A DNA stretch of 64,000 nucleotides from Owenia fusiformis (Eukaryota): positions 28,086,001 through 28,150,000 of the forward strand of contig CAIIXF020000001.1 in assembly GCA_903813345.2 (NCBI GenBank), in the 5' to 3' direction. The notes beneath the pieces were generated by a model, which was given only the letters and a program-made list of their open reading frames with translations, did not search any database and was not told where the DNA came from. Positions 8,877 to 55,026 of the stretch are shown here, in pieces. The first letter of the stretch is position 1. Every line of letters starts with the position of its first letter. Made by a program: the position numbers and the translations under genes.

Positions 8877-10794
8877 ATGTGGTTTAAAGTAGCCTGGTTC
8901 TGTCTCCTGGTGGTTACCATAGTGACATCCGCTCCATTGCCTGCATTGTTGGATACTAAGGATATCCTCAGTATCCATAAAGACATGAATGTCCCTATCA
9001 CTATGAAACAGGTAAGTTGATTCAACTTGAGAACAACGTGTTTATTTGAACTGTGACGTGATATCGATCTTTTAAGAGATGAAAATAAAAACATGTACGA
9101 ACATTTAAAATCATATGTTTTCATCTGTATTTAAGGCGGAGAATGAAATTTTGAAATTACCAGCGAACAAAAGGAAGAACACAGATAAACTCGCTTACTA
9201 TCTATTTGTGGAATACATGCAAGAACTTATAAAATCTGAAGAAAATACAACACCGGTTAACAAAGCAGATGTCGTAAAAATATACCCAACGAAATCTTCA
9301 CCAGTGTCCAAGGAAACTAGCAATGGGAAATTGATACTCCCCAGTTCAAAAGATGCACTTCTCAAAGCGGGAATTGATGACTTGGATGTATCTCCCACAA
9401 ACATTATGATCGCACCTACGACACAGAACAATACTTCTGTAGATATACTTAACACGACCATGTCAATCGAATCTGACAGCGTTGAAATAAACCAAACCAC
9501 TAACAGTTTAGATATGACCTCCTCAGTCAAACCTGGACTTCTATCTACGGTCCAATACAAAGATTCTGTTGATCCTGTTAAAATGACCCATACAGCGGAA
9601 TATGACAATAGTGACATAACTAGCGTAGCAGTCACAAGTGCCCAACAGGATGTGTCAACCACTAAATCTGTCCTTGCGACTACTCCACAATATGATACTT
9701 CTGTTAATACAGTTACAATGTCAATGGAAATTGACAATGCTGAACTGAAAACGGCCAAACCTACAACTGAGAACTTTAATGTACGTAATGCAAACGTTAC
9801 ACAAGTATCAACGACACAACATAATGATTCTTTCATTGCTATTACAACAGGAAACACATCCGTACCCAGTGATATGCAACATGATATCGCAAGTACCACA
9901 GTGTCACTGACACTTTGGAGTCCTACTGAAAAACTCACACAAGCACCAGCAGTGCACGATAATGATTCTAGCATTGTTGTTGAAACTGGTAATGCAACTA
10001 CACTTAATGATACACTACAGGATATCGCAAGTACCACAAAGTCGTTGACATTTGGAAATCCTACTGAAGAACACACACAAGTATCAACACCACAGTATAA
10101 CGACTCTTCTATTCCTGTTGAAACAGGTAATACAACTATGCCTAATGATACACTACAGGATATTGCAAGTACCACAGAATTTGGAGGTCCTACTGAAGAA
10201 CTCACACAAGTATCAACAGCAAAGTATAATGACTCTTCCATAGCTGTTGAAACTGGTAATACAACTGTACCTAGTGATGTACTACAAGCTATAACAACTA
10301 CCACAGAGTCATTGACATTGGGGAATATTTCTCTCACTGAAAAGGTCACATTTTTTGAAACAACCGTGGCTTCAAGGAATAACGACACACTTGGTAATAC
10401 CGCGAATGAATTTCAAAGTTTGAATAACGGCAAACTTGCTAATAATTCAAAAGGAGATGCTGCACTGCTTGCTTCTAACGGAATAAATACAAAAGGTGGC
10501 ATTAGCAATCTAACCGATTCACCAGAAGGATTTTCAAAAATGGTAACTGAAACATTCAATAAAAGTTCTAACAGTTCATCCGAGAAAGAACCAATGATTG
10601 CGATTGATTCAACAACACACAACTCTGCTTCAAGTACTTCTAAGAAGGAGAGTACATCTGATACATCTGATATTTTTTATCCAGGTATTCCGCCCACTGA
10701 ATCTGATTCTGTGTCAACACATTCGACAAATCCCTCTGATAAAACATCAAAAAAACCAACACCGAGATCTGATATCGAATGGGATGGGATCTGA
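8877..10794 (+). CDS. Secreted Ser/Thr-rich mucin-like glycoprotein, ~597 aa, two exons
   Basis: Exon 1 (8877-9011) encodes MWFKVAWFCLLVVTIVTSAPLP..., which looks like a signal peptide, and ends CAG|GTAAG. The phase-0 acceptor AAG|GCG at 9136 joins it to the long ORF ending TGA at 10794. Very T/S-rich, many N-x-S/T sequons, no Cys in exon 2, no obvious transmembrane segment. Confidence 0.8.
9799..10341 (+). repeat. Four coding tandem repeats of ~138 bp (46 aa) in the mucin-like gene
   Basis: Units start at 9799, 9937, 10075 and 10204 (the third unit is 3 codons shorter). Consensus TQVSTxxyNDSSIxVETGNTTxPxDxLQDIASTTxSLTxGxPTEEL. Confidence 0.85.
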
Positions 10795-33330: not shown

Positions 33331-36300
33331 GCCTATTGGCGTGTGTTTTCTAAACAAAACAAACAAACGACTGTCCTAGCAACTAGATAAGTGATAAGCT
33401 ATATGACGTCATCGTCAGTGTAAGTGTGGCGCACGTCATAAGGTGAATGGTCGAACTTATATATGACGTAAATATATCACGTGATTGGAAACAGAAGTTG
33501 CCACCTAAACACTCATTGTATTTCAGATGTGAATAGGAAGTCTTGCAACGTTTACGCGTATTGGAATATATACTTTTGAAAATATTTATGAAAGAAACAG
33601 GAAATAGGCCACATAACTGAACACTCATCGTGTTTCAGATGTGAATAAGAAGCCTTGCTACTTTCTTACGCGTATTGGAATCGGGATTGGAATAGATACT
33701 TTTAGAAATATTTATGAAAGAAACAGGAAGACACGAAACAGAATACTCATCTTGTCTTCAGACGTGAATAAAAAGCCTAGCTACGTGCTTACGCCTACTG
33801 GAATAGATAATTTAAGAAATATTTCAGAAAGAAACAGAAAATAGGGAAGAGACAACTGAACACTTATCGTGTTTCAGACGTGAATAAGAAGAGATAAGAA
33901 GCCTTTGCCATGTTCTTACGCGTATTGAAATAGACTGATTATTTCAGAAATATTTAAGAGAGAAACAGAAAAATAGGGAACGAAACTGAACACTCATCGT
34001 GTTTCAGACGTGAATAAGAAGACTTTGCCAAATCCTTACGCGTATTGGATTAGATAATTTATTTAAGAAATATTTAAGAAAGAAAACAGAAAAATAGGCC
34101 ACGTTACTGAACGCCCATCGTGTTCCTGACGTGAATGAGAAACATTTGCCATGTTCTTACGCGTATTGGATAAGATCGTTTAAGAAACAAACAGGAAAAC
34201 AGGCCACGTAACTGAACACTCATCGTGTTTCAGACGTGAATAAGAAGCCTTGCATCGTTGTTACGCGTATTGGAATAGATAATTTAAGAAATATTTAAGA
34301 AACAAACAGGAAAAACAGGCCACGTAACTGAATAACCATCGTGTTTCAGACGTAAATAAGAAGCCTTGCTACATTCTTTACACGTTTTGGATTAGACAAT
34401 TTAAGAAATATTTAAAAAAGAAACAGGTAAAACAGGTCACGTATCTGAATACTCATCGTGTTTCAGACGTGAATAAGAAGCATTTCCATGTTCTTACGCG
34501 TATTGGATAAGATCATTTAAGAAATATTTAAGAAACAAACAGGAAAAACAGGCCACGTAGCTGAACACTCATCGTGTTTCAGACGTGAATAAGAAGCCTT
34601 GCTACGTTCTAACCCGTATTGGATAAGATCATTTAAGAAATATTTAAGAAACAAACAGGAAAAACAGGCCACGTAACTGAACACTCATCGTGTTTCAGAC
34701 GTGAATAAGAAGCCTTGCTACGTTCTAACGCGTATTGGAAAATATCATTTAAGAAATATTTAAGAAACAAACAGGAAAAACAGGCCACTTAACTGAACAC
34801 TCATCGTGTTTCAGACGTGAATAAGAAGCCTTGCTACGTTCTTACGCGCGTTGGATTAGATAATTTAAGAAATATTTAAGAAACAAACAGGAAAAACAGG
34901 CCAAGTAACTGAACATTCATCGTGTTTCAGACGTGAATAAGAAGCCTTGCTGCTACGTTATTACGCGTATTGGATTAGATAATTTAAGAAATATTTAAGA
35001 AGCAAACAGGAAAAACAGGCCACGTAACTGAACATTCATCGTGTTTCAGACGTGAATAAGAAGCCTTGCTACGTTGTTACTGGTATTGTATTAGATAATT
35101 TAAGAAATATTTAAGAAACAAATAGGAAAAACAGGCCACGTTACTGAATACTCATCGTGTTTCAGACGTGAATAAGAAGAGATAAGAAGCCTTTGCCATG
35201 TTTTTACGCATATTGGATTGTTAGTTTAAAAAATATTTAAGAAAGAGACAGGAAAATAGGCCACATAACTAGACACTCATCGTATTTCAGACGTGAATAA
35301 GAAGCCTTGCTACGTTCTTACGCGCATTGGATTAGATAATTTAAGAAATATTTAAGAAACAAACAGGCCGGGAAAAACAGACCACGTAACTGAACACTCA
35401 TCGTGTTTCAGACGTGAATAAGAAGAGATAAGAAGCCTTTGCCGTGTTCTTACACGTATTGGATTGTTAATTTTTAAAAAAAATTAAGAAAAAGACAGGA
35501 GAATAGGCCACATAACTAGACACTCGTCGTGTTTCAGACGTGAATAAGCCTTTGTCACATCCGTACGCGTATTCAGACGTGAATAAGAAGCATTTCTATG
35601 TTCTTACGCCTATTGGATGAGATCATTTAAGAAATATTTAAGAAACAAACAGGAAAAACAGGCCACGTAACTGAACACTCATCGTGTTTCAGACGTGAAT
35701 AAGAAGAGATAAGAAGCCCTTGCCATGTTCTTACACGTATTGGATTGTTAATTTTTTTAAAAATTTAGAAATAGACATGAAAATAGGCCACATAACTAGA
35801 CACTCATCGTGTTTCAGACGTGAATAAGCCTTTGCCACATCCGTACGCGTATTGAATTAGATGATTTAAGAAATATTTAGAAGGAAACAGGGAAAACAGG
35901 CCACGTAACTGAATACCCATCGTGTTTCAGACGTAAATAAGAAGCCTTTGCCATCTTCCTACGCGTATTGGATAAGATAATTTCAGAAATATTTAAGGAA
36001 GAAACAAGAAAACAGGCCACGTATCTAACACCCATCGTGTTTCAGACGTGAATAAGAAGCCTTTGCCATGTTCTTACGCGCATTGGAATAGATTATTTCA
36101 GAAATATTTAAGGAAGAAACAGGAAACACAGGCCATGTTACTGAGCACTCAACGTGTTTCAGACGTGAATAAGAAGCCTCTGCAATGTTCTAATTACGCG
36201 TATTGGAATAGATTATTTCAGAAATATTTAAGGAAGAAACAGGAAACACAGGCCACGTAACTGAGCACTCAAAGTGTTTCAGACGTGAATAAGAAGCCTC

Positions 36301-37538
36301 TGCCATGTTCTAATTACGCGTATTGGAATAGATTATTTCAGAAATATTTAAGGGAGAAACAAGAAAACAGGCCACGTATCTACTGATCTAACACTCATCG
36401 TGTTTCAAACGTGAATAAGAAGCCTTTGCCACATCCACACGCGTATTGGATTAGATAATTTCAGAAATATTTAAGGAAGAAACAGAAAAATAGGGGACGA
36501 AACTGAACACTCATCTTGTTTCAGACGTGAATAAGAAGACTTTGCCAAATCCTTACGCGTATTGGATTATAGATAATTTAAGAAATATTTAAGAAAAGAA
36601 ACAGGAAAAACAGGCCACGTAACTGAATACCCATCGTGTTTCAGACGTGAATAAGAAGTCTTGCTACGTTCTTACACGTATTGGATTAGATAATTTAAGA
36701 GATATTTAAGAAACAAACAGGAAAAAACAGGCCACGTAACTGAATACCCATCGTGTTTCAGACGTGAATAAGAAGCCGTGCTACGTTCTTACGCGTATTG
36801 GATTAGATAATTTAAGAGATATTTAAGAAACAAACAGGAAAAAACAGGCCACGTAACTGAATACCCATCGTGTTTCAGACGTGAATAAGAAGCCTTGCTA
36901 CGTTCTTACGCGCATTGGATTAGATAATTTAAGAGATATTTAAGAAACAAACAGGAAAAAACAGGCCACGTAACTGAACACCCATCGTGTTTCAGACGTG
37001 AATAAGAAGCCTTGCTACGTTCTTACGCGCATTGGATTAGATAATTTAAGAGATATTTAAGAAACAAACAGGAAAAAACAGGCCACGTAACTGAATACCC
37101 ATCGTGTTTCAGACGTGAATAAGAAGCCTTGCTACGTTCTTACGCGTATTGGATTAGATAATTTAAGAAATGTTTAAAAGAAAACTGGAGAAACAGAGGC
37201 CACCTAACTGAACAGAGGCCACCTAACTAAGAAGCCGCCACGTTCTAACCCGGATTAGATAATTTAAGAAAAATGAATAGAGAAACAAAAAAACAAGCCA
37301 CGTAACTGAATATCCATCGTGTTTCAGATGTGAATAAAAAACCTTGCTACGTATTTACGCATATTGGATTAGATAATTTAAGAAATATATAAGAAAGAAA
37401 CAGGAAAACAGGCCACATAACTAAAACCTCAACGTGTTTCAGAAGTGAATGAGAAGGCAAGGGGCATAGCCCCGAGGCCATTATTTTTCCTAAGACCCAA
37501 GACGAATTGTTTATCTAACTAAAACCACACAATAGGCA
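33331..37538. mobile_element. Possible Helentron/HINE-like non-autonomous element carrying the satellite array
   Basis: Left GCCTATTGGCGTGTGTTTT followed by an (AAAC)n microsatellite. Right AAAACCACACAATAGGC (inverted counterpart), preceded by a GGGGC-ATA-GCCCC stem-loop at ~37461-37473. Confidence 0.45.
33505..37455. repeat. Tandem satellite array, about 34 units of ~116 bp
   Basis: Consensus CACTCATCGTGTTTCAGACGTGAATAAGAAGCCTTGCTACGTTCTTACGCGTATTGGATTAGATAATTTAAGAAATATTTAAGAAACAAACAGGAAAAACAGGCCACGTAACTGAA. Example unit starts: 34566, 34682, 34798. Confidence 0.97.
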
Positions 37539-38110
37539 ATGACTCGTATCAAAGGTAAGTCCATGATCCAATTTTAGGAAAAATTGATTTTTTTATTGAC
37601 TATGAGGTAAGTGTATTAAGAAGTGAGTGGGTGTAGTTAAGCTTCAGTGAACTGCATTTAACATGGCATGTATAGTTTTAAGTTTGTTTCTTTTGTGTTT
37701 ACTATTCAACTATTGAAAGAACGAATAGGGTACTTAACCTTCTGAGCACTGCATGAGCCGGTCAATCATATTTTGTGCCACATTGGTTTTGGATAGCTAA
37801 TGCTGAATGCCAAGTGTACATTCTTAAAAGAATAGAAAAATAATGCACTCCTCTTTGTTACAGCTTTCTATTGTGTTGCTACCTAAGTGTGGTTTAACCT
37901 CATATAGATGGATTTTTAATGTATAATTCAATTTAGAAACTGACAAAGACAAAACTTGCCAAGAAAATGAACGCATATCGTGTATCAGACGTCGATCAGT
38001 GAATAAGTATATGCTCGAGGATGTATATAACACAAACGTAAGAAAGATAATAAACGTAGAAGGTGTCATCTATCGTTCGTGTTGCGAAAGAAAAACAAAA
38101 CGTCTGACAC

Positions 38111-38124: not shown

Positions 38125-38632
38125 CGTATTTTGTTAAATGTTTTTCATATTTATTTCATGTCTTTCCTAAAATGCAATCGTTGTTTTAATATAGAGGTCG
38201 GTGATGATATTTTTTCTGGTATTGATGAGAACATTGATGGATCGCACCTGTCTAATAATCAATCCACCGTTTTACTATCTCTGCTTCGGGATTTATTGCG
38301 AAATAGCGTGTATGAAAAGAAGATAACAATTAATTGCACTAACTCCACACATGGGAAACAACCATTTCCACACAACTAAACTTAAGATAATTTTTATTTC
38401 TGGCGATATATCCAAATCCCCTTGAAAGATTCTGACAACTCTCTGTGAATTCTGGATCTGTTTATCTAATCCGTCGGGACTTAGAAGATGCTATTCGTGT
38501 TACCTGATAGCCCATTGCTGTTGGCTTACTTTGATAGACTACTACACCAACTCCTACTTCAAATCATCTGCACTACTAGAGATATAGAGCCTGCTTTTTG
38601 AATAATTGCTCAATAATTAATAAAGAGAAAAA

Positions 38633-40679
38633 ATGGCCAATTTGGATGTTCCTCAGCTACAGAAGGATTATGCCGATTCTGGTGATGAATGGCATGATGC
38701 CGAGCAGGAAAACACTAATGTAGAACAATCTGGAAATAGCTCCTGTTCAGCTGTCGAGCAACAATCTCACCAGTCAAAAAATATAAACGTCGAAGAACAA
38801 CAGGGAGGAGGTAGTAGGTCGGCAAATGCAATAAATCATCGGAAAACAATTCCAATAGAAGCTCAAGTTAATTCAACTCATAAGCAAGAGTCAAAATCTC
38901 AACAAAAGATAGAGGATTCTAAAATGTCTGCACCCGGAGACGACGAGGAAACGGTGTGTTTAAAGTACCAGCCACACGCATGGAAAAAAGGAGTTTGTAA
39001 CATTTGCTTTAAACCCCGGGATGAGCACCCGGCTGATGGTCAAGCTGAACCTGTGATTGACGAAAGTCTGAGCCTTGCGGCGAAGCTGGAACAAGCAGCA
39101 AAACGCGTCAAAGAATTGGAATCGCAGATCAAAGTTGTCAAACACAAGTAAGTCAGTTAATTTTTGCTCATTTCTATGACTACCAGCCTTCAATACGCTC
39201 AATACCCCTTTCAATATCTTCCTTCACAACAGGTAAAAAACATTTTCACGAATTCAATGGGAATGTAGATATTCTTCAGTCATTGTGGTGCAGCCTTGTA
39301 TACTCCAAAAGAAAACATAAGGATAATTGCTTGTATTCTGACCTGCAAAAACGGGGACCTTAAGAAAACTATTTTCCTCACATCTTCACACTCAATCGGG
39401 CAAAAGATCAGCGAGGAGAAAATAGTCCATGGAGGACAATTTTACACGTTTCACGTAAACGTACTTCAAAACAGTGCTCACTTAACCTCCCTATCATTTA
39501 GCGAGACGGCTCAGTAACACACACATCTATAGGCCTCGTTTCCACCATTCCTTCTCAATTACACACTTTGTGCTATTTACAAATATTAGATAACTTTGAT
39601 TAGTTGATACGTTACCCTTTGCAACTCGTCGACACTGTTTTTCTGAGAGAGTATTAGTAGATCTAGCCTATAGACATCAATTTCACATTTGAATTCAAAC
39701 TGAGTTCTAGAGATCGTCAATATACTTTTAACTATCAGCATGGCTGAAAAAACTTGAACTGTATCTGATGTAGTCAGTTTAGGGTAGAATGGCTACTGTT
39801 TTGTCTGTAGAATCAGGGTAGTGTATGGCGGGTGATTAATCAAATGATGTAATCCAGATCCATACACTTAGGTCTACGTACTCATTCTAAGAGTTTGACT
39901 AGTTATTCAGAAGTGGGAGAAAATTAACATTGTACGTACTTGCATATGCGTCTGAAGTTAAATGAAGAGTTGTCCATTTATTGCGAATATGTTGAAAGTT
40001 GTAAGTTTTATGGGCTCTTTATTGGGCCTTCATGGCTGACTTTCAGGATATTACTTCCTATATCTCCGGCCAATACTACCCTTGTGATATATCATCACAC
40101 CTCACATTACCGAAAATTTCAAAATGGATGGCCTATGAAATAACTAGTATAGGTATAGTAATTTTAATCAACATATATTTGTCTCTGCGAATATTTTCAT
40201 TAACCCTATCACTGAAACTAGTTGATTTCTCCACAAGAATTCTCTAGAAGACATACCAATTCAAATACCGTCGCGACAAGAAATGTTTTGGCATAGTATA
40301 TTTTAGAAGGGAGAGTTAAAAGTAAGATCGTGTGTATAACGGACAAAATAAGTGAATTCTCTTAATTGGGCGTCATCTTTTTATCAAATATTTAATCCTG
40401 TCAATTTTTTTCTTTTTCGCTCATTCCATACACATTTAATTTGCTGTGTTTAAAACGTTTTTATTGATATTTTCCAGTCACTCCGTCCTCGACGAACAAT
40501 ACACTGAGCTCGAAGACAGTGTCCTTGATAGGGAAGACCAAATCCAGCAAGTTCGGAACGGCGCCGTACACGAAATAAAAGACCTCGAAGAACGTTTAGG
40601 AATGCTCGAAGATGAAAATCGTAAATTGAATAACAGACTACAGGATGTACAAAAACGTAGACCAGTAAAGCTTTTCTAG
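38633..40679 (+). CDS. Uncharacterised ~238-aa protein: disordered N-terminus, C-x12-C-x2-C-x6-H motif (PEAK1/PRAG1/MPRIP N-terminal type), coiled coil (paralogue A)
   Basis: Exon 1 (38633-39147) ends AA|GTAAGT. Exon 2 starts TTTCCAG|T at 40478 (phase 2) and ends TAG at 40679. Motif CLKYQPHAWKKGVCNICFKPRDEH at 38957-39028, followed by a heptad-rich tail. A paralogue lies 6 kb downstream. Confidence 0.82.
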
Positions 40680-42930
40680 AATTGAAAAGCAGATCTGTGA
40701 AATCTCTAAATATTTGGTAAAACGAAGACGAGAAAGTCAATATGAGTCAATGATTTCGGGGTGATATGTGCGGTAAGGATTGCATAGCTGTAAGGTGAAA
40801 CAACATACGAACTCCAGGTGAGGGTTACGGAATGTAAAAAGGCACTGCAAACTTAAACAACTGCTGATATACTGCTTCTTCACACCACATGGATGTATCT
40901 ACTCGTTTAATTTCCAGAATAATTTAGATGAAACTCAGAATTACAATTTACTCAATACAGAACCATATCCGTGTAATATATTTAAAAGGGGCTATTTCGA
41001 TGATTCGAAGCTATTCGAAGTAAAATGTTAGAGAGGCATGCCAGAAAGGAAAGTACTGCAATTTGTCTAACACATCTGGTTAATTTTGACGTGGAGAAAC
41101 CAAATTCCATTAGTCTGGATGTACATTTTGAGTATGGGAAATCAACCCAAAATTGTAGCTTTTTCTTAAGATGAAACGGGTTCACAAAGAAGGCATTGTA
41201 TTTAATCTTCTAACTTGTATGAATTGTAAGTAACGTAGTTATAAGGCCATTATTGCATCAGGTATGGTCGTCATCGAAAAATTAATCTAAATGATGCCAA
41301 AAACCTGAGCGCCATCATGTGCACAATGTTTAAACTAAGTCGTAGTGATGCAAGAAATTCACGAAATCTATTTTTGTACTAGTTTATCAGAAACGTATAT
41401 CTAGACTGGTGTTAGATGATTGTTAAATATTTTTCATATCTCAGCCTGGGAGCGCTCTTCCCTACCTGGCGCTGCGCAGGTTAGATTAGGCCCTTCCAAA
41501 TGTTTGACACTCTACTACAGTGATACCCTGTATTGTGAAAACCAGGAGGGGCTAAGATCATATTCATTAATAAATAGTTTTACTGGATCGTACAGTATAG
41601 ATTATTTTGCTGTCATGAGAACGTATGTCGCTCAGGATTCTTTGCTAGGCAAAATGATTAATAGATGATTAATAGCGTGTGCAAGAGTGTATCGTGCAAA
41701 AGTAAGAACTGAACAGCCGTTTTTGTTGATGTTCCGCCAAATTGGCTCCTAAGGATGAGAACCATGTATTCCTTGATGTATAATCATCTCTCAGACCCGA
41801 AGTCTCCGTATATAACACTAAACATGGATGTGATAACGTGGGGGGTAAGGATAACGAACCTTTGATGGTGACGATAACACTAAACATCAGCTCAAATCTG
41901 ATGATCGCTGATGTTCATAGGAATCGAAAATGCAATTTTCCATCCGTCCACGTTATCTAATCCATTCCTTTCCCATGTATTACTCCTCAACTAAATCTAT
42001 TAGGCTATATTAGACTCAAGGTACATGTTGATAGTCAATGTATGTATGAACATACAAAATAAGATGGGTAAATGTATGATCCGGGTGTATGATATTTTGT
42101 AATGTAATGACACATAACGTGCAATTGTAAAAAAAAGTTGTTTCATATCTTGATAATGTATATATGACCATTTGTATTATATTATACATAATGTATGGAT
42201 GTTTGATTGCTTCAATATGTGTAAATCTCAACTACATTATTATCATCTTGTATTTAGCATTATCGTATAAATGTGCTTTTGTAACTGTATTCGTTTTAGA
42301 GCATAAACATATACCAATATAAAAAAGTCAAAATAGATATTGTTTGCAATCCATATTGGTAGAAAATGGTGTGTAAAGATAAGATATACATCTGTTAGGC
42401 TTATGTGTAATAGATTTAGAGTACGATCTTATGATTTAATGTTATCCTTCTTAACAACTAGATTCATCCCATTTTTAATTGATTATGCCTCGTATAAATG
42501 TACAAGATGTTGTCATTTACAATAAACCAATACGTAATATGTATGTGATGTCATATGAATTACAGTAGAATGAAGCCATTTTCCATCCCCTTGTTTTTGT
42601 TGCTAGATAGATATTTTTTCGAAAAGTTGATATCAAATGGATTGGCATATACGCGTGCTTGAATTACTTGAATTTTGGGCCAAAATATCAGGTCTGTGAT
42701 AGTTCAAATTAGAACATATCATTGATCATGGAAAAGGGGCACAAAATTATTTTTTACAATTTAAGAGAAACATTCTTAAACATGTTCTTCAGGTTGGATT
42801 ATTAATCACAAAACTATTTTTTCTTCTTTTCACAACCTTTATTTTACTAAACAGGACGTTTCGGATCCTGTCATATAATTAATAATTTCTGTTTAATCTG
42901 TTAATAGAAACATGTTTCGCTGTTATTGGT

Positions 42931-43002
42931 CATACTCGTTTCCCAGTTTGATTTTCAATCACACTGGTTATGAAAACATCATACCTTGGAAATCCAAGAT
43001 GG
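42931..43002 (+). repeat. Dispersed repeat copy, same family as 5490-5555 and 24489-24564
   Basis: CATACTCGTTTCCCAGTTTGATTTTCA...TTGGAAATCCAAGATG. Confidence 0.65.
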
Positions 43003-43872
43003 TTATTGAATTTGGTAATTTCATATGTACATGTATATGCAGTTTTGCACATATTGGCAGACATATGCAAGACAAATATGTCGATTCATGTACATATAAA
43101 CGATTTCGCCTACACCGAGTTAAACCCCAACTCTTATCTAATTTATTCTTGTCAGTAACAAAGAAGGGATGAGAGAAATTCAAACTTCAGGCTCAAAATA
43201 ACCACAACTGTATCTTTACATATCTATTTCTGGCAGCTTGGTTAACATTACGTATTAACTGCTCACTGCTGATTGCTTTTTGTTGGTCTTGAACTCAGAT
43301 AGCCTTGTGTTTTTAGTTACATCATCAGGCCACTTTCGAGCTAATGCCAGAACCAGTTATACACCAAACATTCTTTAAATTGAAGTAATGTAACACATAT
43401 TAATGAAATAAAGTGTACTTTACATGGCGATAAAAATCCCCTTGCATATTTTGGCCATGAAGATTTGTCGAAAAACTTCGTGTTGACCAAAGTATTTTCA
43501 GAATTTTTTCACGCTGGTTTTGCATACTATACGTCAAGTTACAGTAAAGTAATACATTTAACATATTTCCAATCCCTAATGAGCATTTAAGACACCTTCT
43601 TCAAAGAGCTCAAAGCCTTGAAACTTGTTGCAAACATGTCTTGGTCTAATTCCTTGACTGGCTTGTTTATCTGGGATAAAGTTGAGATAACTTGATAAAA
43701 CCTGAAGATAAAGTGTGATGAATGAAAGATCTAGTTATATATAGGATGTCGACAGATATTCACAGGGATCTAACCCGAACCAGGTGGGCTATTCCTGTCA
43801 GATAAAATGTGGCACTAATCTGGAAATATTTCTCTATTTGAACCAAAACTGGAAAGCTGAAAATGAAGAAGA

Positions 43873-44058
43873 GTGTGGCGGATCCAGAAGCAAACAAGGG
43901 GGGGGGGCAAATTTTGAGTCAGTAAAAATTTTCGAAGCTTGCGCGGAAAAAACTTTTGGGCCCCTTAAACCAAAAATTGTGCCCAAATTAAGAAAATGTA
44001 AAGCCCATCTTTAGAAAAGTTGGTCATAAATTGTCCCCCCCCCCCGGATCCGCCACTG
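43873..44058. mobile_element. GC-ended MITE (GTGGCGGATCC...GGATCCGCCACTG family)
   Basis: Inverted ends with poly-G/poly-C tracts. Related ends at ~45720-45734, 54878-55026 and 55251-55334. Confidence 0.7.
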
Positions 44059-44606
44059 AGTAAGGGGTCGGTATTACCGTTTTCTCAACCAACTACTACA
44101 CGACAATATCATTTTATGGAACATTGTATTGTGCTGCCCTCTTTCTTATGTTTGAATGCTATTTGTCTGCAAATGAACTTGGCCTGGTCTTCGTTTGCTG
44201 TTAATGACAATTTGAATGTGAAACATATAAATTGCCGACATATGTTAAACCTAAATGTTAAAAACAAGGGTTTGCATTGATATTTTATGAAAAATGAGAC
44301 AAACCAATCGAAACATCGTGGGTTCATTAAGTGGAATTTTTTATCTTCATTGCATGTTTCTGACATGAAGTTCACGTCAAACGTCTCAGCTCAGGCTTTG
44401 ATTTTGGCCTTCGAGTCCTTAGTTCTGACCAAAGGAGAGTGTAAATGTACAAATTGCAAGACCACAACATCAGATATAACCTTCATTGTGATTGCGTCTC
44501 GAGAGAGTTTTCTGTTCATTCCGTTACCATTGCACAAAAATGTGCGAGATAAACCAGGTATGTTTTATTTTGGCTCCATGGAGAGAGCAGAAACATCTGG
44601 ATGCTG

Positions 44607-44620
44607 GTTGCTATGGTAGC
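44607..44620. promoter_or_regulatory. RFX X-box-like motif upstream of paralogue B
   Basis: GTTGCTATGGTAGC resembles the X-box GTTGCCATGGCAAC. A second motif, GTTAGCATGGCAAC, lies at 45011-45024. Confidence 0.45.
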
Positions 44621-44965
44621 AATCTATGTTTCACGGGAGAACATGCAGTAAGACATCCCACCTGACCTCGATTCTGTATTTGGGCATTGATTACCTTATG
44701 CATACTACGTCAGTCCTCATTAACATATCTTGATGATTCGTTTACCTTTGATTGGCATTACCTGTTGCCACAGAGTTAAGAACCCCGCTGCCCGTTATAA
44801 TCTATACTCTTTACCACTTAGATGTTGATGTAGGCAGAAGTATGGACATTGCCCGAGAGAATTAAATACCTCATGATCACAAAATAAAGTGTTTTTATAT
44901 TGATTTGGAAGAGCTCAGACGTACAACTGCGTTAACTTGTGTAATAAAGATAGCGGTTAGGAGAT

Positions 44966-47900
44966 ATGGATGTAAACAGCGTGGAATGTGAACCTACTCC
45001 TCCTCAGGCCGTTAGCATGGCAACCATTACATTGGGCTCGAATGGTAACCACAGCGACGAAAATCATGATGCCTATCGGGACATACCTCCTGTGAATAAT
45101 GATGATGTTGATTTAAGCATAACACAGAGAAAAAAGAAATCCAAAGGTCTATACTCTGCGTCATCTACTGCGTCCAAAGTGTATGGAACAGTGCATAGTG
45201 AAGAAATCGTAAAAATGTCAGACTCGGATGTATCCGCACCCCCTCCTAGCAGCTCACAGACCATACAGACACCCACGGGCAACAGATTTGTGACGACAAG
45301 TGGGGGAAACGAGGTTGGCGAGGACGACGAAGTTTGCCCAGAATTTCAGCCCCATGCCTGGAAGAAAGGGATGTGTAACATTTGCTTCAAAAGTCAAGAA
45401 GAACATGAAGGCAAAATACCGGACATTTCCAAAATGAGGATAACGTCGGGAGGGGGAGGGAGTTTGGAGAAACGCCTTGAAATAGCCATGAAACGTATCA
45501 AAGACCTGGAAGCTGAACTCAGAGAAGTTAATGGACAGTAAGTAACCAATATACCTATTTTGTAGGGCCTCGATTAGTGGGCCTTTTGGCATTAATTTGC
45601 CTTTTTGGGCCTTCTTGGCCAAATTGTCAAAAATGGGCCTCGAATTTTCAAAATTTGGGCCTAGTTTTGGATATAGGGGCCCAAACATTTTTCCCAGATT
45701 TGAAATTTGCCTTGAGCTTCTGGATCCGCCAGTGTATTTAGACAAAAGATGACGAAACAAAAACATCTATTTTTGATCTCTTACAAAACAGATTTAGATT
45801 AATCAGTTAAAACTCATTATTCACGTTACCTTGACTGCCCGTTTTTTGTAAATTGAACTATTTATAGAATGTTTGCGATTACGTACATCTTTATTATCTC
45901 GTTAACTTTCGGTTCAGCTTCAACCATTCGCCTACCAGCCTTACAATCCAGCTACAGCTGGAGATATTGAAGATATGATAGCCTAAGATCAAACACTAAG
46001 GATGGATCGGACATCTTATCAGACCTCACCTATGAACCGAATCGCAATTTTAAGTGTTTTCATGTATTATCTGGGTTTTTTCTTTTTCTGAGGTGCTTTG
46101 GTATTTGGTTGAGTGACCTTAGCGTTCGGAAACTAATGGTTGTTCGCTTTAAGGACATATGTCTAGGATTGTTGTTGTTTTCTATTTTGTTGTTTTTAGA
46201 ATATAGAGCAATGCATCATGGAACTTCGTGTCCATTGTTCTACACCAGTATACTAATTGTGGGAAACATGATCGTTGCTCTTGGCAGTTGATTTTCATTT
46301 GTGATATTTGTCAGGTTGCCATTGCCTCTCTAGACGTGTTTATTTCTAGACGTTGCTAGATAATACTCTATGCTATAAGTCAGTGTTATGTAAGATGTTT
46401 GCCGAGAATGTGATCACTGTGTACAAGTCATATACCTGGTCTCTCATAGAATAAGAATTGTACCCAATAACATGAATAAAACTCTTTTTCCTCGATTTGA
46501 TAAGATGAACTTTTCACACGATAAAGACCAAAGACAATTTCTTTTCCAATTAGCATTTGATATTCATAGTTTTGTAAATTACTTAAACTGAGAAAGGACC
46601 AGGTGTAGTATAGCAAGGGATTTTGGAGTCATTTCTTTCACCATGAGTACTGGCCATAAGTACAGTGGTTTTTATTTAAGCAATATATTTTTATTCAAGT
46701 GAAGTCCCCGTGATAATAGAATATCAATCCAACTCTCTGGAAATTATGGATTAGGCCTCCACCTTGTCACTTTTTTTTAAAATGTTAGGCTTATTTTCTA
46801 AAACAAAGAGGACCTCTTTTTCTCAAATTAAATATATCAAAAGTTTCTTTTACACTATATTAACAAACTTCTGTGACACAATTAATTGTTTCAGCATAGT
46901 TTTGGTCATGGAAAATTAATATCTTCAAAACTAGACTTTCAACGCCATTCTACTTTTGAAGAAGATTTAGATCCCTTAATCGTTTCGTGAAAGACACCAT
47001 ATAATGTGTTGATGAGAAACTATGTCGTATTCAAATTCAGAAAACTGTCTAAAATCACTTGCCATACTATACCTGGTCCTTTGACATTTTAGATGACAAG
47101 TGGCCTCCATTACTATCAATGCACAGCCAAATGTTGCTATCGCAAACATGGAAATGTCTGATGGTGCTAGAACAATTATTTCGCAAAAACTAAGTAAAAT
47201 CACCTAGTGAAACATTTTGATGTTGCCGATACGAAAATGTTACATGACCAAATGTTTAAAAATTCCTTCATTGTATCGGTGCAGCATGGAATGGATGATG
47301 GTGCTAGAAACTTTCAAGAATATTAGCGGTTCATCACTCACAGAGTTATTCGATGTTTGTCTAGCTTCAATTTGGATTGTGGATTGCGTGTCACCACAGC
47401 AAGAGCTTGTTGCAAGGCTATCAGGTTCACTAATCTACAGATGAATTTTAAAAATCAAAAGGGCCCAAAACCGCGTTAAATGAATATATTTTTTGGTTTA
47501 AGTCGTGACCCTTTGAACGTTTATGCCTCAATTACATTTGATCATCGGCGATCGTAGCTTCACCAAATCGAGAGAAATACGACGAAACATAAAATATATG
47601 GATAAACATAACGATAGATTATCTATTTCAATTTTGTTCAGCTACGGCCGCCATACGCCTGTCGTAGAGCAAATGTGACCGGGGCTTTAATAGACAGCAT
47701 GTTTTTCTGTATTTACCATGTCTATTTGAATTCATTACTGAATTTGAAGAAACTTATATTATATGCCCCGAAAGTAAAAAGGTTAACTCGAATAATCTCA
47801 AATGAATACTTAGCTGCATATGATATATTGTGATTATACAGATGAACCGACAAAATCTGAAACAGTAGCGGGTTCATGTTTTTAATATAAATCGAACATG

Positions 47901-49270
47901 AAACTTATGTAAAGGCCTCGAAGTTTTTTCTTCAAAATCCTTGTAAATCCTTGTTACGTATCATGTTCTGGGCTAAGTTGGTTTTATAGTTCTACATACA
48001 TTCCTATCAGTTATATTTACGTAAACACGATATCGGGAATCTCTTGCTATCCCAGCGGTTGTCTGGCTGTACTTTGCGTAACTCAGGAAATACCTTGAGG
48101 TGAGATAAACACTACCCACTATCTGCCAATACGTCCTTGCAAGTTACACTCCCTTCCATAAGTTTGGCAACCTTAGCTCCCCCATTGAACTACGTGTTAA
48201 AGCCTCTTTACGTTTGAATTTTTATTTACTTTATATTGTCTATGCTTTATGGAGGCTATGAGAGGTATATGATATATATATGATTTTGAAAAAAAAACTC
48301 TTTGGTCGAGCATATGTTTGAAGCAAGTTGAAAAATATATTTTTGCCCTTCAATATCTCATTAGTATAACGACGTTTGTTACGTCGATTGATAAACTTGA
48401 CTTTTCCTTCAGAAATCAGTCTTTTGTGATGAACTTGAATTTCTAGATTGAATAAATCAATTCTTTGACCTTCCGAATGTCATATAGGTCAACCAAAGGT
48501 CAAATCTCAAATCAAAGGACGGATTTGAACTCCTGAGAACTAGTAGTTGATTTTGAAAAAATTGGTCAAATTGAAGTTGAAAAAAGACTTTTTGACATTT
48601 TTTACCTTCAAAACAATATCTCAAAAAGGCAAAATATATCCGATATTGGTGGAAATGTGTTGGAACTCATAACATGTTAAAATATGCTGACAGTAAAAAT
48701 TTGAAGTCAGTCTAAACAGTACTTGTTAGTTATTGAAAGTAGTAAGAATTACGGTTACAGACGTCGAACGCCGGCCGGCCGACCGCCGTACACAACACAC
48801 ACGTCTGGTGACATATTGTAGTCTGCTTGTAAGATAAACCTGGACACAATAGGCATAGAGGGAATTACCCATATATTTATAGATGAACCTATATTTGTGT
48901 AAAGATGAGCCCATTTTACATCTTTGAATTTTGGGATATTTCCTGTTCTTCATAGACATCGTCCACTGAAGTTGTAGCCTACTGCACACAATCCAAATGG
49001 TGCATTTGTTACTCTGCTTCCATTTCTCTGAAACCACCATTGTATCATTACAGGTATGCTCAGCTCCAGATTGACTTCAAAGAACTGGACGAAGACTGTA
49101 TGAGTAAAGAAGAAGAGCTTAAGAGAGCGGAGGAAGAGAGCACTGACATTGTGAAGGTCCTTAGAGAAAAGGCAGAAAGACTAGATGATGAAAATCATTA
49201 CCTTAAGAAAAGGATTGAAGATCTTCAACCAAAGTCTATAAAATCTATAGGAAGAGGAAAATGGAAGTAA
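44966..49270 (+). CDS. Uncharacterised ~262-aa protein: disordered N-terminus, same C3H motif, coiled coil (paralogue B)
   Basis: Exon 1 (44966-45537) ends CA|GTAAGT. Exon 2 starts TTACAG|G at 49054 (phase 2) and ends TAA at 49270. Motif CPEFQPHAWKKGMCNICFKSQEEH at 45335-45406. SLEKRLEIAMKRIKDLEAEL and L.DEN..L..R..D align with paralogue A, and the intron has the same position and phase. Confidence 0.82.
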
Positions 49271-54139: not shown

Positions 54140-54790
54140 TCATGTTTCAGCACTGTTTGCTTGAAGAGACATCTTTTGCTTCATTTTGTCTTTATAAGCG
54201 TGTTTTAATGCCATTAGTTCGTTTTGTAGAGAACTGATTTCACATGATGAAGTTAGAACTTTCTTGAAGCAAGCCTGACTCTGTTTTAAGGCCTGTGGTA
54301 CAAGAACACCAAACCATTTTATGGGATCAACTGTATTATCATCATTTGACTTTGATTCCTTGCTTTTTAAATCACTTTCATCTTTCTTAACATTTAATTC
54401 TTCAATTCCCCTGGTCACATCATCAACGGTTGACTTGATGTTCCTTTTCCTAACAGCAGTTTTCTCTTTATCAATCTCGGCTGTTGTTGTATCATTAGGA
54501 CCAGTTAATTCAAACTTAAAAGCATCAGTATCAAACATAGATTCTGTATAAACATCAACCAAAGCACTTGCCACCATTTCCTTCTCATTATACTGCACAG
54601 TGGACACTGACTTATTCCCCATGGAATATCGGGCTTTTGACATTAGGAAATATCCATCCTTTAGTGTTGATTCCAATGATTGACGTGTCTCATTGAGTTG
54701 AGATAAGACATCAAACACCTTTAATGTAATGTTGTCCAGCTCTCCACATACCTCGTGGTATTCCGAGGCAACATTCTCTGGCATTGTCAT
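54140..54790 (-). CDS. CCDC115: Coiled-coil domain-containing protein 115 / V-ATPase assembly factor VMA22
   Basis: 216-aa single coding exon with LKDGYFLMSKARYSMGNKSVS and DPIKWFGVLVPQALKQSQACF, typical of CCDC115/Vma22. A splice acceptor lies 2 nt before the ATG (54793) and a candidate 5'-UTR exon donor at 55439. Confidence 0.93.
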   Translation of the reverse strand: MTMPENVASEYHEVCGELDNITLKVFDVLSQLNETRQSLESTLKDGYFLMSKARYSMGNKSVSTVQYNEKEMVASALVDVYTESMFDTDAFKFELTGPNDTTTAEIDKEKTAVRKRNIKSTVDDVTRGIEELNVKKDESDLKSKESKSNDDNTVDPIKWFGVLVPQALKQSQACFKKVLTSSCEISSLQNELMALKHAYKDKMKQKMSLQANSAET

Positions 54791-54877
54791 TCCTGGAAAG
54801 ATAAAAGTATATGAGCAAAAGTATACATCCAGGCCTGAACAAATGGTAGAGGTGTACCTATAAGAGAATCCAGGTAC

Positions 54878-55026
54878 CTCTGGCGGATCTGGGGGGGGGG
54901 GGGGCTGGGGGCCATAAAAATTTTGGGCCCAAAGAAACTGTGCCTTTTAAGACCTTATTTTTTAATTTCAGGCCAAATTAAGAAGAAAATGCCCCTCCCC
55001 CTTGTTGGTTCCCAGATCCGCCCCTG
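54878..55026. mobile_element. GC-ended MITE in the predicted CCDC115 5'-UTR intron
   Basis: GGTAC|CTCTGGCGGATCTGGG...CCCAGATCCGCCCCTG|GGGAC. A second, shorter copy lies at 55251-55334. Confidence 0.65.

Follow-up and report, generated by a model that had tools for sequence, protein, structure and literature searches.

Among described proteins, those with which the present locus invites comparison are large animal scaffolds. MPRIP (p116Rip; outspread in Drosophila) is a protein of about 1000 aa in which an N-terminal motif is followed by two PH domains and a long C-terminal coiled coil, and PEAK1 and PRAG1 carry a C-terminal pseudokinase with flanking dimerisation helices; MPRIP and the PEAK-type scaffolds self-associate, and one preprint bears the title 'Dimerization of the Pragmin pseudo-kinase...'. 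The N-terminal Cys/His motif of MPRIP and of PEAK1/PRAG1 may be akin to the finger discussed below, a likeness that we treat as no more than a lead. The locus under study lies in a 64-kb stretch of Owenia fusiformis DNA (contig CAIIXF020000001.1, positions 28,086,001 to 28,150,000; hereafter the window, within which all positions are counted). The window is animal DNA of about 35% G+C, and two complete two-exon genes stand on its + strand, gene A at 38633-40679 and gene B at 44966-49270, each encoding a small protein with one Cys-Cys-Cys-His (CCCH) finger of spacing C-x12-C-x2-C-x6-H and a coiled coil. A first reading made from the letters of this DNA (the sequence-only reading) had seen in them a motif of the PEAK1/PRAG1/MPRIP scaffolds 'stripped' of kinase and PH domains. 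The explanation that we favour overall, with a probability of about one half, is a different one, namely that the pair are small proteins in which one finger and a dimerising rod give bivalency.

The finger and its relatives

A profile made of the two Owenia fingers and the helix that follows them (alignment A1), searched against the full set of 1,835,955,588 protein representatives, retrieved 23 proteins at E <= 0.001, the two Owenia proteins included. The exact C-x12-C-x2-C-x6-H spacing is found in 18 of the 21 non-self matches, in 48 copies altogether, and 15 of these 18 hold two to six finger copies per chain. P0012 and P0018, motif-less and internally repeated (P0018 is a TAF9-like repeat), were dropped from the 21 as spurious, and P0014, which by eye follows the variant C-x2-C-x-C-x12-C-x2-C-x-H-x-H, was left out of the counts and of the profile. 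The named sources among the matches are a rotifer, Rotaria sp. (P0024), and two kinetoplastids, Trypanosoma theileri (P0013) and Cryptobia borreli (P0020). In the reverse direction, a hidden Markov model built from the 48 non-Owenia copies, whose source proteins had themselves been found with the Owenia profile, scores the Owenia exon-1 frames at 50.6 (A) and 49.7 bits (B), the next-best frame of the window reaching 7.0. Judged by these matches, the finger is a pan-eukaryotic module, present from kinetoplastids to animals and mostly in two to six copies per chain.

Both Owenia fingers have the ligand spacing Cys-12-Cys-2-Cys-6-His exactly, and we infer that the finger would bind a single zinc. 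The invariance of the ligands among the 48 copies was imposed by the regular expression that served to collect them; at the positions in between, counted from the first Cys, an aromatic residue stands at +3 in 48 of 48 copies (F in 37, Y in 11; Y in finger A, F in finger B), F or W at +8 in 47 (W in both Owenia fingers), and K or R at +9 in 44 (K in both). One may read these positions as the mark of a nucleic-acid binder, in which a basic aromatic face ([FW]-[KR]-K) would contact RNA or DNA while the coiled coil dimerised like that of a leucine-zipper factor. The K/R at +9 and the aromatic at +8 would fit such a function, as would a K or R at +20 in 35 of the 48 copies, the basic C-terminal tails of both A and B and a weak, sub-threshold bZIP_1 match on the exon-2 piece of each gene (E 0.046 and 0.018). 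The fingers are, however, flanked by acidic runs (DDEETV, EDDEV), finger B has a net charge of 0, and the N-terminus and the coiled coil are acidic; none of the nucleic-acid-binding Pfam families reached a threshold, and the nearest structural look-alikes are clusters of cytoskeletal scaffolds. We regard this explanation as unlikely.

The best non-self matches, P0007 (214 aa, E 3e-18) and P0008 (223 aa, E 6.5e-17), are similar in size to the Owenia proteins, and across 30 residues the finger at their N-terminus has 73% identity with finger A, with PHAWKKGVCNICFKP and an acidic run before the first Cys. There the likeness ends: P0007 and P0008 have two fingers per chain, a Lys/Glu/Pro-rich linker and no coiled coil, and their finger sits at the extreme N-terminus, whereas that of Owenia comes after 108-123 residues. 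The kinetoplastid proteins P0013 and P0020 and the rotifer protein P0024 have the ligand spacing of Owenia and agree with it at the aromatic and the basic positions. They differ in holding two to five copies on each chain, with linkers of low complexity, and in lacking a coiled coil; their annotation says no more than uncharacterised. The scaffold signature 'stripped' of its domains does not survive this comparison, the finger being widespread and its nearest relatives being small two-finger proteins without a coiled coil.

As to the scaffolds themselves, neither MPRIP nor PEAK1/PRAG1 is among the 23 profile matches at E <= 0.001. They exceed 1000 aa and have the motif at about residue 5, whereas the Owenia proteins measure 238 and 262 aa with an internal finger; the PH domains of MPRIP/outspread are absent from the Owenia proteins (none at E <= 10 or 0.01), as is the kinase or pseudokinase of the PEAK family in the Pfam scan, and nothing follows the coiled coil. 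A structure look-up in the Atlas with residues 100-142 returned MPRIP/PH-domain clusters in rows 1 and 2 (TM by query 0.68, 38-41 residues aligned) and a chordate protein-kinase cluster in row 3 (TM by query 0.57), on a length of about 40 residues at which, by the tool's own caveat, TM means little; with the whole protein the MPRIP cluster came first at TM 0.40, and feature searches in the Atlas gave scores of 0.76-0.83 only, noise level by the tool's figures. We treat these modelled look-alikes as a lead towards the same finger type as in MPRIP, and not towards membership of its family. By the sequence-only reading's idea of a decoy or competitor, the mini-proteins would occupy the sites of MPRIP- or PEAK-like scaffold fingers, without PH or kinase domain, and so damp the pathways concerned. 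The same finger type by structural look-alike, the lack of any other domain in Pfam scans and the retention of two diverged copies with the finger as the most constrained part are consistent with it; but the nearest sequence relatives are small two-finger proteins and not scaffolds, and a long conserved dimerising rod would be superfluous for a simple decoy. This we hold to be distinctly unlikely.

Described families offer the finger few footholds. No Pfam model passes its threshold on the Owenia proteins, and the cut-off is passed by 1 of the 19 motif-bearing matches (the 18 with exact spacing and the P0014 variant). That match is P0017 (Owenia-profile E 1.8e-5). PF23477 zf_Tbcl_2 ('Probable treble clef zinc finger'), with a cut-off of 27 bits, gives it 29.8 bits over residues 51-68, within one of the C-x12-C-x2-C-x6-H copies of P0017. 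On P0011 the same model stays below that cut-off at 22.9 bits; P0001, P0002, P0005 and P0006 have no match, and the link to Owenia is an indirect one through P0017. PF23477 recognises 2 of 20 finger pieces at E <= 1, none of them from Owenia, and is by sequence the nearest named family to the finger. The sole Pfam family that touches the Owenia finger is PF24194 DUF7419, with 18.3, 17.7 and 21.7 bits on finger A, whose second half aligns to model positions 18-33 of 39, below the 27-bit cut-off; it has no match on protein B and matches 4 of the 20 finger pieces at E <= 1. Neither family has an assigned function, and the name of neither occurs in the literature searched, at the level of titles and abstracts; at that same level, searches on the motif, on the Pfam names and on zinc in MPRIP or PEAK1/Pragmin brought up no description of the finger.

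A 74-aa piece searched against the sequences of the PDB gave 0 matches, and a 20-row profile gave 12 at E <= 10, with no stretch significant alone, all of them generic C-x2-C knuckles (PRDM9 C2H2 fingers, rubredoxins, ribosomal S29). An AlphaFold2 (AF2) model of the 35-residue finger, made from the 20-row alignment, has a mean predicted local distance difference test (pLDDT) of 82.7, with 89-92 in the core, and shows two bridge residues and a short helix immediately before the His. The finger might also be a peptide-recognition knuckle (A20-type, a small treble clef) in a protein- or ubiquitin-binding adaptor, N-terminal linear motifs recruiting different partners. The unrelated N-termini of A and B would suit divergent cargo, and the spacing of one ligand, a loop of about 12 residues and a C-x2-C knuckle may resemble that of A20-type fingers. 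Against this stand the lack of A20, AN1 or any other ubiquitin-binding family at E <= 1 on the 20 finger pieces and the lack of a structural match from Foldseek and VIA-align, and we consider the adaptor improbable.

Among the sequences covered, a protein of this size that combines finger and coiled coil is found in Owenia alone. A word-index homologue search at near lengths returned only self at E <= 0.001 (21 candidates for A, 193 for B), and one of longer proteins with the finger region alone gave no candidate with enough common words; the homologue, Pfam and profile searches yielded no full-length match to a named small-protein family, in agreement with the sequence-only reading, which could place the pair in none. 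A same-size relative with finger and coiled coil was likewise absent from the homologue and profile searches, in which more diverged fingers would miss E <= 0.001. Two larger matches, P0010 and P0023, show by eye fingers together with long Glu/Arg/Gln-rich helical regions. One finger with a dimerising rod is a lineage-restricted architecture, which is not to say that the absence of orthologues is proven.

Two side observations concern the family at large. By eye, the N-terminus of P0014 is SAM-like and its three fingers are variants, each preceded by an additional C-x2-C-x-C and followed by H-x-H; the module may here have been elaborated to hold two zinc ions. P0009, P0013, P0015 and P0020, the kinetoplastid proteins being among them, are seen by eye to end in short, acidic motifs that contain Phe, Leu or Trp (...NLFD, ...DLFE, ...LFGDDDD..., ...DGDLWK). 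These are reminiscent of endocytic or retromer-type short linear motifs; if they are real, membrane traffic would be suggested for the finger family.

The rod and its modelled dimer

Two copies of protein A residues 100-238 were modelled together with Zn, in three runs and beside three unrelated-protein controls. The homodimer scored 0.56 in all three runs, the best control 0.00; the pLDDT of the partner was at least 76, and at least 88% of the contacts were common to the runs. In the calibration of the tool this mark was reached by 21 of 30 microbial proteins solved as one-chain pairs and by none of the 23 whose solved form is a single chain, and among eukaryotes by 17 of 29, yet by 1 of 7 without an older solved relative. 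The modelled interface is formed by i-to-i contacts with 3-4 spacing along residues 148-229 (about 82 residues), across the exon junction; the coiled coil starts 15 residues after the His of finger A, and the contact positions are mostly Leu, Val, Ile or Ala, with some polar residues. The rod is thus probably a parallel, in-register dimeric coiled coil, and the dimerising coiled coil that the sequence-only reading had proposed finds support in the model.

The gene pair, its divergence and its expression

Joined by coordinates in a script, the spliced coding sequences (CDSs) translate to 238 aa (A) and 262 aa (B) and correspond exactly to P0005 and P0006, both labelled 'unnamed protein product [Owenia fusiformis]' and both placed on a contig of 62.2 Mb. 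In-frame stops stand four to five codons 5' of each ATG (TAA at 38621-38623 for gene A, TAG at 44951-44953 for gene B). Each intron interrupts a codon between the second and the third base (exon 1 CDSs of 515 and 572 nt, that is 3n+2) and comes directly behind the last column of the ungapped alignment of the first helix segment of A and B. The coordinates, lengths, junctions and shared phase-2 intron position that had been read from the DNA are correct, the CDSs being those of P0005 and P0006, and the pair of two-exon genes is confirmed where it had been placed (Table 1). That the products are stand-alone small proteins of finger and coiled coil, as had also been claimed, agrees with the upstream stops, the stops in exon 2 and the public models of equal length.

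Table 1. Parts of the two genes, in positions of the window
Feature	Position	Strand	Content and remarks
Gene A exon 1	38633..39147	+	ATG 38633; CDS residues 1-171 + 2 nt; disordered acidic/polar N-terminus, finger, linker, start of coiled coil
Finger A	38957..39028	+	Residues 109-132; C-x12-C-x2-C-x6-H; CLKYQPHAWKKGVCNICFKPRDEH; 50.6 bits against the profile of 48 non-Owenia copies; AF2 pLDDT 82.7
Gene A intron	39148..40477	+	1330 nt, GT..AG, phase 2; GTAAGT donor, CAG acceptor
Gene A exon 2	40478..40679	+	Residues 172-238 + TAG stop; remaining coiled coil and basic tail
Gene A modelled dimer interface	39074-39147 + 40478-40649	+	Residues 148-229; homodimer model
Gene B exon 1	44966..45537	+	ATG 44966; residues 1-190 + 2 nt; Ser/Thr-rich disordered N-terminus, finger, Gly-rich linker, start of coiled coil
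Finger B	45335..45406	+	Residues 124-147; CPEFQPHAWKKGMCNICFKSQEEH; 49.7 bits against the non-Owenia profile
Gene B intron	45538..49053	+	3516 nt, GT..AG, phase 2; GTAAGT donor; contains high-copy repeats and an inverted repeat
Gene B exon 2	49054..49270	+	Residues 191-262 + TAA stop; coiled coil and basic tail

Translated in six frames, the window contains the pattern C-x12-C-x2-C-x6-H two times and no more, where 50 shuffles gave an average of 0.04 per window. Fingers A and B are identical at 17 of 24 residues, 9 of these 17 being encoded by different codons in the two genes; the strongly conserved 24-aa motif of the sequence-only reading is indeed shared by both genes, but with fewer identities than its consensus implied. 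Elsewhere the resemblance is of the kind that had been noticed at first sight. The exon 1 translations resemble each other over no more than 72 residues (46% identity, E 9e-19); the N-terminal 105-120 residues fall outside this stretch and are, as they had looked, unrelated, and the coiled coils do align, their exon 2 part at 26% identity over 53 residues (E 3e-5). The nonsynonymous distance dN between the paralogues is 0.17 in the finger and 0.54-0.80 in the helix blocks. The synonymous distance dS is saturated, with values of 1.8-2.7 for the helix blocks and none definable for the finger, and so allows no estimate of dN/dS, which had been suggested as a check. These distances mark an old tandem duplication in which the finger is under the tightest constraint.

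Variation at the locus could be glimpsed in a contig of another run (X1, record 1). X1 was taken at first for RNA, yet it covers introns evenly and is DNA-like. For 13 of the 15 differences between this contig and the window the positions are listed, between 38484 and 39401; two of the listed ones are in gene A exon 1 (39052 and 39109), both third-position and synonymous by reading, and 11 are in 403 flanking non-coding bases. As far as Owenia is concerned, the gene pair is an ordinary lineage-specific duplication.

None of the listed sequencing runs that contain this stretch is recorded as RNA. Expression was looked for in three raw RNA-sequencing runs (X16, X17 and X18), each read to about 6-12%, with splice joints listed from 3 reads upwards. 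Gene A exon 1 has a depth of 0 in all three, gene A exon 2 of 0.86 in X18, gene B exon 1 of 1.13 in X17, and gene B exon 2 with its downstream flank of about 1.0 in X18, with traces in X16. The X17 reads on gene B and the X18 reads on gene B and on gene A exon 2 are of one mate orientation, with zero in the adjacent unique bins; the X16 traces on gene B exon 2 are of both orientations. It could be argued from such minimal coverage, from the want of any listed junction read and from the lack of a relative of the same architecture in the homologue and profile searches, that the pair is an artefact, either exons of some larger gene that were modelled wrongly or lineage-specific open frames whose function or expression is slight or nil. 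Yet both introns have canonical GT-AG ends, share one phase and sit at an identical point of the alignment, stops precede both ATGs closely, the finger is conserved despite saturated synonymous sites, the listed exon differences in the X1 contig are synonymous only, and the reads on gene B exons (X17, X18) and on gene A exon 2 (X18) keep to a single mate orientation with adjacent unique bins at zero. We deem an artefact very improbable, the least so favoured of the alternatives considered here.

Other features of the window can be stated briefly. An inverted repeat of about 508 nt at 46584-47091, in the gene B intron, has 53-nt arms that are 79% complementary and is high-copy in X1; it also gathers many RNA joints of the 'opposite strands' type, from about 46627-46650 to 47044-47048, and resembles either a MITE-type transposon or a hairpin that is transcribed. 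Very high-copy repeats occupy 42411-43212 and 43614-44014 in the spacer between A and B, and 48025-48826 in the gene B intron. The summed contig depth on them in X1 is up to 60,769, against about 15-30 for unique DNA, and RNA reads on them come from either strand, some of them ending loosely or skipping an internal stretch (48335/48496, for example); the repeats are probably transposon fragments. Downstream of gene B, on the opposite strand, 54140-54946 is one uninterrupted open frame, 268 aa long, with a Pfam match to Vma22/CCDC115 above the cut-off (E 5.8e-20), and is, by this match, a V-ATPase assembly factor gene. At 9109-10794 (+) lies a Ser/Thr-rich open frame of 561 aa in which units of about 40-45 residues recur (...NDSSI.VETGNT...LQDIASTT...), mucin-like by eye and without a Pfam match, and at 34000-38000, just upstream of gene A, the AT skew of the + strand reaches the window maximum of +0.16.

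A proposed bivalency from one finger and a rod

The relatives of the Owenia finger nearly always have several fingers per chain, and for this reason our proposal is that dimerisation gives the Owenia proteins an equal valency. Each would be a small protein of cytoplasmic type, made up of an N-terminus of about 105-120 residues that is disordered and evolves fast, one CCCH mini-finger holding a single zinc (C-x2-[FY]-x-P-H-A-W-K-K-G-x-C-N-I-C-F-K-x3-E-H), a linker of 15-20 residues and a coiled coil, about 80 residues long, through which two chains would pair in parallel and in register. The coiled coil would thereby replace the tandem repetition of fingers seen in the relatives, and the dimer, a homodimer or possibly a heterodimer, would set two weakly binding fingers side by side and so gain avidity. 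Bivalency would be the design principle, and the ligand may be a repetitive or polymeric, probably acidic surface. Our first guess is cortical actin or membrane, since MPRIP is the structural look-alike of the finger and the N-terminal region of MPRIP mediates binding to F-actin (PMC8068864).

Several points weigh against bivalency by one finger and a rod. The target is a guess, none of the members of the finger family having a known ligand, and PMC8068864 mentions neither zinc nor cysteine, so that actin binding is not tied to the finger. Zinc binding rests on the invariance of the ligands, which the collecting expression had itself imposed, and the Zn in the homodimer job went unscored. That job carried a small molecule, unlike the calibration. 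The fold searches with the 35-residue finger model were empty (Foldseek 0 matches; VIA-align 0 chains at Z >= 2 of 48,161), and the label of treble clef is for that reason borrowed from a Pfam name. As for the rod, the specificity of the dimer pass is weak: coiled coils score well by likeness to solved ones, and the controls were unrelated proteins. In 3 of the 18 exact-spacing matches (P0019, P0021 and P0025) a single exact copy occurs without an evident coiled coil, although P0025 is a 71-aa piece and P0021 has by eye a looser second copy. Lastly, expression is barely seen, with exon depths of 0 to 1.13 across the three RNA runs; no joint across 39147/40478 or 45537/49054 appeared at the 3-read bar, at a depth too low to confirm or deny them, and with so few RNA reads the junctions rest on the sequence and the public gene models.

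It is tempting to go further and to regard the finger as an ancient and unrecognised eukaryotic targeting module that works only through multivalency, a tentative and rather doubtful extension that would cover the tandem arrays of protists, the N-terminal single copies in self-associating animal scaffolds (MPRIP, PEAK1/PRAG1) and the finger with rod of Owenia alike. The finger is poorly covered by Pfam and undescribed in the titles and abstracts searched, yet it extends from kinetoplastids to animals, and the scaffolds that it would cap, with the structural look-alikes as a lead, are studied in cancer and smooth-muscle biology. A protein of 238 aa with one finger and one rod would be a convenient reagent for zinc binding, for the fold and for ligand fishing. 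If the multivalent reading is true, the Owenia mini-proteins would be the simplest natural form of the module, and their ligand would explain the N-termini of MPRIP and of the PEAK pseudokinases. In either case the main value of the pair lies in offering a minimal natural handle on this module.

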